A stretch of 64,000 nucleotides of DNA from Polyangiaceae bacterium (GTDB lineage: Bacteria > Myxococcota_A > Polyangia > Polyangiales > Polyangiaceae). Where the stretch lies: NCBI GenBank assembly GCA_044225865.1, contig JBGAID010000021.1, positions 40,280 to 104,279 on the forward strand. Reading direction: 5' to 3'. Of the stretch, positions 33,495-38,360 are shown in pieces. The position numbers and the translations under genes are program-made. Position 1 is the stretch's first letter; each line of letters begins with the position of its first letter. The notes below the pieces were generated by a model. It was not told where the DNA came from. It saw nothing but the letters and a program-made list of their open reading frames with translations, and searched no databases.

Positions 33495-36400
33495 ATGGCG
33501 CGCACCGCACCGGTACCCAACATCCCCCCCATCCCCGGCATGTGCCCCAGCATCGCCGTCCTCGCCGGAGGCAGCGGCAGCGGCGGGGGCTCCGGCAGCG
33601 GCGATGGGAGCGGCGACGGAAGCGGCGCCGGCGGAAACGGAAGCGGGGACGGCGCCAATGGCGATCAAAGGAACGCCCCCGACCCTTCCAAGAACCCGGA
33701 CTGCGGCACCGAGTGCCACCCGGTCGACGTCGTCACGGGGCGGACGTTCACGCATCCGATTGTCGACTTCGAGCTGCCGGGGCCATTGCCGCTGACGTTC
33801 GCAAGGTCGTGGAGCTCCCTCTCCCGCCGGCGAAATGGCAGCCTCGGCTATGGCTGGTCCCACACGCTCTCATGGCAGGTTCAGGTCCGCCGCGACAAGC
33901 TCGTCGTCTGGAGCGACCTCGGGGTGAGTGTCGACTTCGAGCTCTTGAAGCCGGGCGAGCAGAGGCTCGGCCCGTGGGGATGGGTGCTGCGGGCGGAGGC
34001 GTGGGGCTACGCGCTCGACACCGGCGCCGGCCTGTGGCTCATCTTCTCGGAGCGACGCGACGACCATCACCTCCTCACCGCCATCGAGGACCGCAATCGC
34101 AACCGGATCACCGTCGTCTACGACGACGGCAAGCTCGCCGAGATCACCGACTCGGCGGGGAGGGTCCTTCGAGCTCGGACAGACCCGGCCGGACGCATCC
34201 TGGAGATCGCCATACAGAACGCCCCTGTCCAGGGCCAATGGATCGCGCTCGTCCGCTACGTGTATGACGAGCGCGAGGACCTCGTCACCGTCCGCGACGC
34301 CGACGACCACGCCTGGCGGTACGAATACGACGACGAGCACCGGATGACGCTGGACCGGGATCGGTCCGGGCTCACGTTCCACTTCATCTACGACAGCGAG
34401 AGTCGCTGCATCGAAGGCTGGGGCGACTACGAGGGTCGCCCCGACCCATCGCTCTCGGAGCACGCGCCGAAGCTCCTCGCCGACGGCCGCACCCCCGCCA
34501 AAGGCGTGCACCATTGCGTCTTCCACTACATGGCGGACCGGGTCACCGAGGTCGTGAAGTCGACGGAGGTCCGCCGCTACTTCGGGAACGCCTTCGGCCT
34601 CGTCGACAAGTCCGTCAAATCGGGAGGCGTACAGTCCTCGCGCTACGACGAGCGCGGCTACCTCGTCGCCGTCGCCGACGAGAACGGCGCGGTGACGACC
34701 TTCGTGCGCGACCCCCGCGACCGGGTGCTGAGCGTGACGGGGCCGCTCGGGAACAAGGTGACGATCGCGCGCGACGACGCGGGCCTACCCATTCGCTTCG
34801 TGGACGCGATGGGCCAACAGACCGTCATCACCCGCGACAGCCGCGGCAATCCCCTCACCGTCGTTCACCCCAATGGCGGGGTGACGAGCTACCAGTGGGA
34901 CGAGCGCGGCCTCGCCACGATCGTGATGATGCCCAATGGTGGCCGGTGGCTCCTCACCTACGACGCCCACGGAAACCTGATCCGTCGCGTCCAGCCGGAC
35001 GGATCGGAGCGACGGGCCCAATATGATCACCTCGGTCGCCTCCTCGCGGAGTGGGAGGGCAACGATCGCACGACGTACACCTATTCCAACCGCGGGGATC
35101 TCGTCTCGATCCGGCGGTCCGATGGTCTCGACGAGCAGATGCAGTACGACGGAGAGGGCCAGATCGTCGCCACGATCGACAAACGCGGGACGGCGATCCG
35201 CCGGGTGTACGGCGGCTACCACCTGCTCTGCGAGGAGCACTACCCCGACGGCGCGGTCGTGAAGCACCGGTACGACCGCGAGGGCCGCCTCGTCTATATC
35301 GAGAACCCACGCGGGGAGCGCTGCCGATTCACCTACAACCCCGGCGGCTTCTCCACGGAGCTGACGGCGTTCGACGGGCGCACCTATTCGATCTCCCGCG
35401 ACCCGACCGGCCGCATTCGCCAGGTCACGGACGGGCTGCGGCGAACCACCACCTTGGAGCGCGACGCGCGAGGGGAGATCCTCGTCCGCTCGCTCTCCGA
35501 CGGGACGAGCGAGTCTTTCGAGTACGATCTCAACGGAGACATGGTCGCGGTGCGGAGCGCGCAGCGGACCATCGTCTACGAGCGGGACGCGATGGGCAGC
35601 ATCGTCCGCGAGCACCACTCCGACCCCGAAGGCACCTACACCCTCGAGCGCACCTTCGATCTCGAGGGTAACGTCGTGCTCACGAGGAGCTCGCTCGGGC
35701 TCGAGGTCTCCCGCGAGCGAGACGCCTTCGGCAGCGCGACCTGCACGCGCCTCGGGTCGGGGCCTGGCGAGCGAGAGCTCCTCCACGCGTTCGACAGCGC
35801 GGGCCGCGAGACGAAGCGCATCCTGCCGGAGGGAGGAGAGGTCGAGTCCTTGTTCGATCTCGTCGGGCGGCTCGGAGAGCGGCGCGTCGTACGGCGGGGG
35901 ACCCGGCCGCTCGGCGTAGGGGAGACAGAGCCCGATCTCGTCGGCGTGCCCTCAGGGCGGTTCGCCTTCGTCCGCAGATACGACTGGGACGAGATTGACC
36001 AGCTCATCGGCGTCTCCGGCGATGGCGTCCCCTCTCGATCGTACGAGTACGACATGGGCGGCAACTTCGTGGCCGCGCAGCGGGGCGCGACGCGCAAGGA
36101 GTTCCGATACGACATCGCGGGGGCGCGGTTGCTCGCGCACGAGCCGGGGCGGATCGGCCCCGGAGGACGCGTCGTCGAGCAGGGACGGAGCACGTACACG
36201 TGGGACGCCGACGGCCAGCTCGTCGAGAAGAAGACGATGCTCGACGACGGCCCCGCCATCACCCGCTTCACCTGGACAGCCAAAGGTCAGCTCGCCGCGG
36301 TGGTCCTCCCGAATGGCGAGCGCGTCGAGCACGCCTATGACGCGTTCTGGCGCCGTATCTCGAAGCGCACCCTGAGGAGGAGCGCGTTCACGGGAGTCCT

Positions 36401-37400: not shown

Positions 37401-38360
37401 ATGAATCACCTCGTCCCCGTCGAAGGCCGCTCCTCTTTCTACAAGCTCGTCGCCACCGACCGGGACGCCAACTACGCGCTCGATCGCGAGGTCGACCCCA
37501 CGCGGCAGACGGCCGCGTTCCTCGCCCGGCAGCGGCTCTACACCCGTCAGGCGATGGCGGCTCTCGATCTCGGGCGGCCCCCCGAGAGGGTCCAAGCCTT
37601 CTTCGCGGAGGCGGCCCTCGCCGGGAAGCTCTATGTCGAGATCGAGCTGCCGCGGCCCCAGCCCTTCCACTCCTTCATGGCGTTCTTCGGATTGCAGGTG
37701 ACGGGGGACGAGGCCGCCCTCGTGAAGACGTCAGAGGCCTATCTCGCGCGTACCTCCCCGGAGCTGAAGCACCGGGTCGGCGACGCCCACCTCGACATGC
37801 TCCTGCGCGCCCTCGCCGCATCGATCGCCGGACAATCCAAGCTCGTCGCCGCATCCCTCTCCCAGGCAAAGAAGCTCCCCCCCAACGCGAAGTCCAAGTC
37901 GCACGGGCAATGGATTGCCTGCCTCCGCGACCTCGCGGGGGCGTGCCTCCTCGACGCTCCTCCCCGGGATCCCTCCCCCCTCCTCGTCGAGGTCGCCGCG
38001 CGGACGCGCGCCCATTTCGGCAAAGCCGATATCGAGGATCAGATCTTCGAGCCCTACCTCAACCGGATCGCCCTCGCCCTCGTGGCCCAGGCGCGCGCGC
38101 GCGGCGCCGAGCTCACCGGCGAGAACCCCGACCCGAGCATGCGCCTCGATCTCCTGCGCCTCCCGCCCTCGAAGCTCCCGAGCCACCCGTCTTGGGACTG
38201 GCCGAAACCGTCCAAAGAAGATCTCGCCGCCGTCGACGAGGCGCTCCGTATCGAGCAGTCGCAGACCGCCGCCGCCGACGAGCGCGGGGCGAAGGCGGGG
38301 AAGAAGGCTCCCGCCAAGGAGCCGCGGAAGGGCAAGACCAAGGGCGGCGCGCGCCGATGA
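37401..38360 (+). CDS. putative Rhs toxin immunity protein (hypothetical, 319 aa)
   Basis: Starts 13 nt after the Rhs stop, same strand. No signal peptide. Helical hypothetical protein with Lys-rich C-terminus. Confidence 0.5.
   Translation: MNHLVPVEGRSSFYKLVATDRDANYALDREVDPTRQTAAFLARQRLYTRQAMAALDLGRPPERVQAFFAEAALAGKLYVEIELPRPQPFHSFMAFFGLQVTGDEAALVKTSEAYLARTSPELKHRVGDAHLDMLLRALAASIAGQSKLVAASLSQAKKLPPNAKSKSHGQWIACLRDLAGACLLDAPPRDPSPLLVEVAARTRAHFGKADIEDQIFEPYLNRIALALVAQARARGAELTGENPDPSMRLDLLRLPPSKLPSHPSWDWPKPSKEDLAAVDEALRIEQSQTAAADERGAKAGKKAPAKEPRKGKTKGGARR

Follow-up and report, generated by a model that had tools for sequence, protein, structure and literature searches.

A predicted Rhs polymorphic toxin-immunity module with a restriction-endonuclease-fold tip and a conserved N-terminal prefix in a Polyangiaceae bacterium

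We examined a stretch of 64,000 nt from a Polyangiaceae bacterium (assembly GCA_044225865.1, contig JBGAID010000021.1, positions 40,280 to 104,279 of the forward strand), hereafter the window, in which a gene for an Rhs polymorphic toxin is followed by a smaller gene that likely encodes its immunity protein. The Rhs gene occupies positions 33495..37388 of the window on the plus strand, stop codon included, and encodes 1297 aa. Its codon bias is coding-like (GC content of 0.88 at third codon positions, or GC3, and 0.47 at second positions, or GC2, in a window of 69% GC), AAGAGG stands 7 nt 5' of the ATG, and the MARTAP start of the protein is kept in homologues. From its N-terminus the protein consists of a conserved prefix (MARTAPVPNIPPIPGMCPSIAV, aa 1-22, 33495..33560), a low-complexity linker rich in Gly, Ser and Asp that was read directly from the sequence (aa 23-74, 33561..33716), a DUF6531 domain (aa 75-148, 33717..33938), a YD-repeat shell (aa 149-1057, 33939..36665), an Rhs-associated core or C-terminal plug with a predicted cut after L1132 (aa 1058-1132, 36666..36890) and a C-terminal toxin domain (CTD) of exactly 165 aa (aa 1133-1297, 36891..37385). 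The open reading frame (ORF) downstream (37401..38360, plus strand, GC3 0.89) encodes 319 aa and follows the Rhs stop after 12 nt. A scan of 33-39 kb for promoters and terminators yielded nothing informative.

The cage of the Rhs protein is recognized by family models throughout its length. Pfam assigns DUF6531 (PF20148, E 3.5e-19) to aa 75-148, RHS_repeat (PF05593, E 4.5e-52) to five stretches and RHS to aa 1030-1063, with a sub-threshold TEN_YD-shell match in addition, while NCBIfam contributes YD_repeat_2x (TIGR01643, E 1.5e-42), RHS_core and, at aa 1058-1132, Rhs_assc_core (TIGR03696). This core closes with DPLGL (aa 1128-1132) and contains DPAG-x18-DPLG (aa 1106-1131), an instance of the DPXG-X18-DPXG aspartyl-protease motif of Rhs proteins, in which DUF6531 forms the N-terminal plug of the barrel (PMC10684867). 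The shell can be aligned with the solved type VI secretion system (T6SS) Rhs cages 7q97, 8h8a and 8qja; by sequence, the solved structures that the plug matches best are likewise those of T6SS Rhs effectors (RhsA, RhsP, the S. bongori Rhs, Tse15, Tse5 and Tre23), though most solved Rhs cages are T6SS ones. The YD repeats, the core with its DPxGL and protease motif, and a tip that varies among paralogues identify the protein as an Rhs polymorphic toxin. A preliminary description of the window had reported a complete Rhs cage with an autoproteolysis motif, and both the Pfam and the NCBIfam models, together with the DPxG-x18-DPxG motif, bear this out.

The same description had drawn attention to a variable tip of about 165 aa with GIDILAV, a gap of 17 residues, IEECK and a Lys-rich tail, all of which are present: D1171 of GIDILAV is separated by 17 residues from E1189-E1190-C-K1192, and the domain ends in TKGKKGKIKYNKVK. 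An exhaustive HMMER search of 1.84 billion representative proteins returned 11 matches to the CTD, 10 of which are true relatives; the remaining one (P0010, a 4370-aa repeat protein) was judged spurious, its match lying in the repeat region. In 6 of the 10, the relative forms the C-terminus of an Rhs protein directly after DP[LW]GL. Another (P0009) is a bare domain of 131 aa, with neither an Rhs part nor a signal-like N-terminus, and three (P0011-13) stand alone behind signal-peptide-like N-termini, as do several further matches from the profile search. This occurrence both on Rhs tips and behind signal-like N-termini is how a modular toxin domain for secretion behaves, and it indicates that the CTD is a module used with different export devices. 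The small signal-peptide-like proteins with a CTD-type nuclease domain and no Rhs part (P0011-P0018, of which P0018 carries the NCBI name Caminibacter sp.) suggest, in their own right, a YraN-related family of nucleases that are secreted or periplasmic. A metagenome scan with the CTD alignment returned one contig, which was already known (L088, the same as L006).

The CTD alignment comprises 11 sequences with 26-46% identity to the window domain. In CTD numbering, G9, G37, G49, E58, K60, Q75, S77 and W80 are invariant, E13 is kept in at least 90% of the sequences, and position 39 is occupied by D in 10 sequences and by E in the other; in the full-length protein the conserved set reads E1145, D1171, E1190, K1192 and Q1207-M-S1209-x-x-W1212. 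An AlphaFold2 model built from this alignment (predicted local distance difference test score, pLDDT, 93.2; predicted template modelling score, pTM, 0.88) shows a helix, three strands, two helices and then further strands, a core order of alpha-beta-beta-beta-alpha-alpha-beta that contains the alpha-beta-beta-beta-alpha-beta core of the PD-(D/E)xK fold. In the model, strand 2 has D39 at its start and strand 3 contains E58-x-K60, giving the acidic residue of strand 2 and the (D/E)xK of strand 3 that are typical of these enzymes, with a further E in helix 1. The family profile also reaches proteins with weak to significant matches to UPF0102/YraN, Mrr_cat and NOV_C, all of which are PD-(D/E)xK families. 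Among them, the remote profile match P0021 exceeds the UPF0102 cut-off (26.3 vs 23.6 bits), and one CTD-family member each has a sub-threshold match to UPF0102, Mrr_cat or Endonuc_Holl. The candidate catalytic residues E13, D39, E58 and K60 are thus kept among the homologues, and the suggestion of a PD-(D/E)xK-like tip in the preliminary description stands on this conservation and on the reach of the profile to YraN/UPF0102-like proteins.

Some of the comparisons weigh against this assignment. The CTD alone matches no curated family in Pfam or NCBIfam, no PDB sequence and nothing in the word-indexed protein database, and its profile has no meaningful match among PDB sequences. A Foldseek comparison of the model with the PDB gave nothing significant (best E 0.026), its top matches again being PD-(D/E)xK nucleases, and the hhalign alignment that places CTD E13 and D39 onto E9 and D33 of Hjc is statistically weak (probability 5%). 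We nevertheless consider that the PD-(D/E)xK fold and its metal-binding catalytic set are present in the modeled domain, which would make the tip a nuclease, with DNA as its predicted substrate. A domain of this fold could instead cleave RNA, or bind nucleic acid without catalysis. We regard this as unlikely, for the full metal-binding set E...D...ExK is conserved and the best structural matches of the model are the DNA endonucleases Hjc/Hje and I-Ssp6803I.

The nuclease-fold tip can be set beside several known systems. It resembles Tox-REase-1, -6 and -7 in joining a restriction-endonuclease-fold Rhs tip to an adjacent immunity gene, and its family motifs GxxxE, G[IPF]D, ExK and QxSxxW resemble the published signatures 'E, D, ExK, Q(,Y)' and 'GxxxE, IxD, ExK, Q' of these families (PMC3482391, Zhang et al. 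2012); for -1 and -6 the comparison covers these signatures and the Imm49 matches described below. The Pfam Tox-REase models gave no match to the window CTD at E<=10, nor to the 11 members of the CTD family at E<=1. We take the families covered by these models to be Tox-REase-2, -3, -5, -7 and -9. With fold and active site in agreement and the Pfam models failing to match, the CTD appears to be a new, rare and unannotated clade of restriction-endonuclease-fold toxin domains, of a kind already known. The likeness to Hjc/Hje and YraN (UPF0102) lies in the order of the catalytic residues and in the profile matches that carry UPF0102/YraN; by this order CTD E58 and K60 would correspond to E46 and K48 of Hjc, which we take to be catalytic there. 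However, the identity is only 15-18%, and the window domain, which serves as a tip on a toxin for secretion, has a QMSxxW motif, a tail rich in Lys and a beta extension added at its C-terminal end. The likeness to Hjc/Hje brings with it no sign of junction specificity or dimerization. PoNe of Vibrio and TseT (Tox-REase-5, with the immunity protein TsiT/Imm52) are reportedly T6SS PD-(D/E)xK DNases with an adjacent immunity gene, and effectors of this type are said to be loaded by way of MIX or PAAR/chaperone. The window also holds an Imm52 gene (46940-47662), but its CTD has no match to Tox-REase-5.

The 319-aa protein encoded behind the Rhs gene has no family annotation in Pfam or NCBIfam, and the indexed database holds two relatives of it, an identical copy and one that is about 50-51% identical (L001). 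Further homologues are found at the loci of the CTD relatives, where one lies directly downstream, on the same strand, of a CTD homologue in L004 (the same as L011, an uncultured Polyangiaceae bacterium), L006 (the same as L088), L007, L008 and L012 (Minicystis rosea DSM 24000, at about 676-681 kb of CP016211.1), at 30-39% identity and pairwise E values of 1e-14 to 1e-50. Counting the window, DNA is available for 7 CTD-family Rhs loci, and 6 of them show this placement. A linkage kept while both partners diverged is the signature of a cognate toxin-immunity pair, and on this evidence the 319-aa gene is likely the immunity gene that the preliminary description had proposed, though its spacer is 12 nt and not 13.

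Two of the loci speak against this assignment. The CTD-family Rhs gene of L005 has no immunity homologue downstream, and opposite-strand genes for a DUF6630 and a 252-aa protein are found there instead; in L001, the homologue sits behind an S9-type peptidase gene and not behind a toxin. Taken with the missing family annotation and with a length of 319 aa, which is large for an immunity protein, they would fit a gene that is an unrelated conserved neighbor, with immunity encoded elsewhere. We consider this distinctly improbable, given the direct same-strand placement in 6 of 7 loci despite only 30-39% identity and the sub-threshold Imm49-like matches of two homologues; orphan immunity genes, moreover, are common. 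The L001 homologue, which lies 4 nt behind an S9 prolyl-oligopeptidase-type gene (3-2457) with no toxin upstream, can be called one such orphan. Imm49 itself is an all-alpha immunity family that adjoins Tox-REase-1/-6 toxins (PMC3482391). Its model (PF15575) scores below its cut-off of 30.1 bits in 2 of the 7 immunity-family members (20.3 bits in L007 and 16.1 in L008), and these matches cover only about 45 residues, in the same region of the profile (positions 161-209). The window protein has no Imm49 match at E<=10, and a remote homology of the immunity family to Imm49 is, from these matches, a possible lead and not a membership. Against the PDB, the immunity-family profile gave TPR-like matches at chance level only (E > 0.2).

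Several members of the immunity family, that of the window included, end in a basic tail rich in Lys, Ala and Pro. These tails are histone-H1-like (38286-38357 in the window), and that of L004 is very long (11570-11776). The Lys-rich ends of both the toxin tip and the immunity proteins may reflect an association of both partners with the nucleoid or DNA. Close to their CTD-family Rhs genes, L004 (region 11792-13176, plus strand) and L005 (region 6031-7681, minus strand) also carry homologous genes for proteins of 264 and 252 aa with 34% identity; these, together with a DUF7691 gene in L004 and the DUF6630 gene in L005, may be extra immunity or accessory genes.

The N-terminus of the Rhs protein was described earlier as a Gly/Ser-rich linker without PAAR or other trafficking domain. 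The linker and the lack of PAAR hold, but the statement on trafficking needs amending, for the protein opens with a conserved 22-aa prefix. This prefix is nearly invariant in both full-length CTD relatives (P0003 and P0007) and follows the pattern MARTAPVP[ND]IP[PA][IL]PGM[CN]P..., and a scan with the pattern, in one genome per species, found 196 Rhs relatives that carry it, with several copies per genome. Almost all of the carriers are Polyangiaceae (Sorangium, Byssovorax, Minicystis and metagenome-assembled genomes, MAGs); a few of the prefix-bearing MAGs are labelled more broadly or otherwise, one being binned as Acidobacteria. Mean identity to the window is 79% in the prefix and 51% in the adjacent plug. 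The prefix is always followed by a variable Gly-rich linker and then by the DUF6531 plug, with a spacing from prefix to plug motif of 51-69 residues in the homologues and 53 in the window, and the 47 full-length relatives that carry it bear tips of 70-215 aa, whose variety, roughly measured, amounts to about 17 BLAST clusters.

Pfam has no credible match to residues 1-74, and PAAR is absent there; the overlapping rows are at chance level (E 0.16-1.5) and fall on the Gly/Ser-rich linker. NCBIfam has no match to these residues at E<=0.1; the prefix is without annotation in either resource, and the limited literature looked at holds nothing on it. By eye, neither a signal peptide nor a transmembrane segment is visible. 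The PGMC of the prefix was considered as a lipobox of a signal peptide and rejected, again by eye, as residues 1-16 are Pro-rich and without a hydrophobic core, and most paralogues have N in place of the C. Of the elements of the locus, the prefix alone could be new in kind. In a bolder reading, which we hold less likely than not, prefix and Gly-rich linker may be an undescribed, lineage-specific trafficking signal that marks a PAAR-less Rhs arsenal of the Polyangiaceae of about 200 genes; the docking partner of such a loading or recognition signal could be a VgrG or adaptor dedicated to it, or else an unrecognized export route.

A precedent for the first of these possibilities is Tse5 (PA2684) of P. 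aeruginosa, a PAAR-less T6SS Rhs effector with a 47-residue N-terminal fragment before DUF6531 that is released by cleavage at K47|P48 and whose only proposed role is VgrG binding (PMC10684867). Tse5 and the window protein share a cage of about 1300 aa, a short PAAR-less N-terminal fragment directly before the DUF6531 plug, a DPxG-x18/19-DPxG autoprotease and a Pro at the N-terminal cleavage position, K47|P48 of Tse5 being equivalent to H75|P76 in the window, where the alignment sets P76 opposite residue 1 of 8cp6_B, the shell chain of cleaved Tse5. They differ in the tip, which is pore-forming in Tse5 and has a nuclease fold in the window, and in the N-terminal segment, which in the window comprises a MARTAP...PGM prefix specific to Polyangiaceae and about 50 residues of Gly-rich linker. 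Dependence on VgrG is, for the window Rhs, putative.

A candidate carrier lies in the same window. As the preliminary description had stated, there is a VgrG at 44.2-46.9 kb: the gene (44231..46915, minus strand) encodes a T6SS VgrG (TssI) with Phage_GPD, Phage_base_V, Gp5_trimer_C and TIGR03361 (477 bits vs a cut-off of 186) and with a C-terminal PG_binding_1 domain. To compare neighborhoods, all window genes were searched by tblastn against 79 related loci, five of which have vgrG in their flanks, and four of these five (L054, L072, L076 and L083) were examined gene by gene. In L076, three vgrG genes and a gene for a 215-aa protein precede the prefix-bearing Rhs gene in canonical order, and in L072 a vgrG-DUF4123 pair lies about 1.5 kb downstream of it. 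In L083, vgrG, a gene for a 187-aa protein and DUF2169 are found beside the prefix-bearing Rhs gene. In L054, vgrG, a divergent DUF2169 gene and a ketoacyl-synthase-like gene are found there, of which the latter two resemble the DUF2169/PRK06147 adaptor pair (PMC7714669), the second gene being known only as ketoacyl-synthase-like. The small proteins encoded directly after vgrG in L076 (9329-9976, plus strand) and L083 (18128-18691, minus strand) share 46% identity over their C-terminal 110 aa, both end in LRLN and have no Pfam match, and are a candidate adaptor; neither has a homologue in the window.

We favor delivery by the T6SS, at odds somewhat better than even, with the VgrG as putative carrier, though several observations count against it. 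In the window, 6.8 kb separate the Rhs gene from the vgrG downstream of it, which is on the opposite strand, so that the two operons are not co-oriented; vgrG is found in the flanks of only 5 of the 79 related loci, no Sorangium strain genome being among these five, though such genomes hold most of the prefix-bearing Rhs copies. Clustering of all ORFs of the 79 loci revealed no conserved upstream partner of the prefix-bearing Rhs genes, only ubiquitous Ser/Thr kinases recurring, and neither Pfam nor NCBIfam credibly matches residues 1-74 to a known T6SS loading marker (PAAR, DUF4150, MIX, FIX or similar). These same observations, namely the 74 loci without vgrG, the lack of a Sorangium strain genome among the five exceptions, the lack of a conserved neighboring adaptor and the unmatched prefix, would suit the same toxin-immunity module delivered without a T6SS, the MARTAP...PGM prefix being recognized by another, possibly Polyangiaceae-specific, route of export or surface display. 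Myxobacteria offer a parallel, as Rhs4 and Rhs5 of Myxococcus xanthus are prophage-borne kin-discrimination toxins, used against siblings, of about 4000 aa with signal sequences that act independently of the T6SS, also in T6SS mutants (PMC10433427). The window protein resembles them as a myxobacterial Rhs polymorphic toxin, but it is only 1297 aa long and, inspected by eye, shows no signal peptide. For T6SS effectors it is also common that an orphan rhs gene stands far from vgrG. The informative neighbors of the related loci, moreover, are T6SS parts (vgrG, DUF2169, DUF4123 and the PRK06147-like gene), and the best-matching solved plugs belong to T6SS Rhs effectors, subject to the sampling of solved cages noted above. 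Export by a route other than the T6SS is accordingly a possibility that we take seriously while thinking it the less probable one.

A third route is suggested by the extracellular contractile injection system (eCIS) in the same window. Its cluster starts at 56891, in agreement with the 56.9 kb given at first, and runs off the end of the window (56891..64000, plus strand), with Pvc16_N, a sheath protein, three gp19-type tube proteins, CIS_tube, a VgrG-like spike, gp25 and CIS_spike_tip. Besides this presence in the same window, the use of N-terminal signals by eCIS payloads (PMC11495950) speaks for the Rhs toxin as cargo of this system. However, 19.5 kb separate the end of the Rhs gene from the first eCIS gene, with AMP-binding and HD-domain genes and the VgrG/lipase operon in between, and a tblastn search left every one of the window eCIS genes without a match in the flanks of all 79 related loci. 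Nor does a folded cage, at about 130 kDa, fit the lumen of a tube. We rejected the eCIS as a carrier on the grounds of this distance and of the absence of its genes from the flanks of all 79 loci, and regard it as very improbable, far behind either of the other routes.

The surroundings of the vgrG gene and of the Rhs operon hold further genes of interest. The VgrG heads an operon, convergent to that of the Rhs protein, with a gene for a 755-aa lipase (41949-44216, minus strand) that has LCAT, abhydrolase (alpha/beta-hydrolase) and weak Tle3 matches and a long unassigned C-terminal half; this lipase is probably the VgrG's own effector. Divergently upstream of vgrG lies the orphan Imm52 gene mentioned above (46940-47662, plus strand; PF15579, 40 bits), which is overlapped by an over-extended VgrG ORF of 1033 aa (to 47332), the real VgrG being about 44231-46915. 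With the vgrG-lipase operon and the flanking Imm52 gene, the region of 33-47 kb looks like a toxin/immunity island. Behind the immunity gene, the plus strand encodes a zinc-phospholipase-C-like protein (38521-39441; PF00882, just above the cut-off) and a 485-aa protein with a lipoprotein-like N-terminus containing FTSAC (39515-40972), which may be a second effector/immunity pair. On the other side, divergent from the Rhs gene, a gene on the minus strand (30710-33658) has MVP_shoulder, Vault_3 and Vault_4 matches (E ~1e-8), domains of the eukaryotic major vault protein (MVP); its ORF start is over-extended into the Rhs gene, and an MVP-like protein is unusual in bacteria.

Taken together, the locus is probably an Rhs polymorphic toxin-immunity module that works as follows. 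The 1297-aa protein would fold into a YD-repeat cage, closed at its N-terminal end by the DUF6531 plug and at its C-terminal end by the Rhs-associated core, whose aspartyl autoprotease (DPAG-x18-DPLG) is predicted to cut after L1132 and to leave the 165-aa toxin domain free inside the cage. Attachment of the cage to a VgrG spike or an adaptor would fall to the 22-aa prefix together with the flexible Gly-rich linker, along the lines proposed for Tse5, which likewise lacks PAAR. Once delivered into a neighboring cell, the toxin domain, a putative metal-dependent PD-(D/E)xK nuclease of an Hjc/YraN-like branch with E1145, D1171, E1190 and K1192 as its active site, would most likely degrade DNA, and the 319-aa product would bind and neutralize it in the producer and its kin.

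The accepted picture of Rhs toxin action is unchanged by this locus, as the module would work like known Rhs-nuclease/immunity pairs. Our findings add to the catalogue of polymorphic toxins what appears to be a rare, unannotated clade of restriction-endonuclease-fold toxin domains with its partner immunity family, and a homologous pair is available in a cultured strain, Minicystis rosea DSM 24000. Should the prefix prove a true loading signal, the Rhs arsenals of Sorangium and its relatives could be inventoried by means of it, the mounting of PAAR-less Rhs cages on a secretion apparatus would become directly testable, and the field would gain, in the manner of MIX, FIX or RIX, a marker by which the effectors of myxobacteria can be found.

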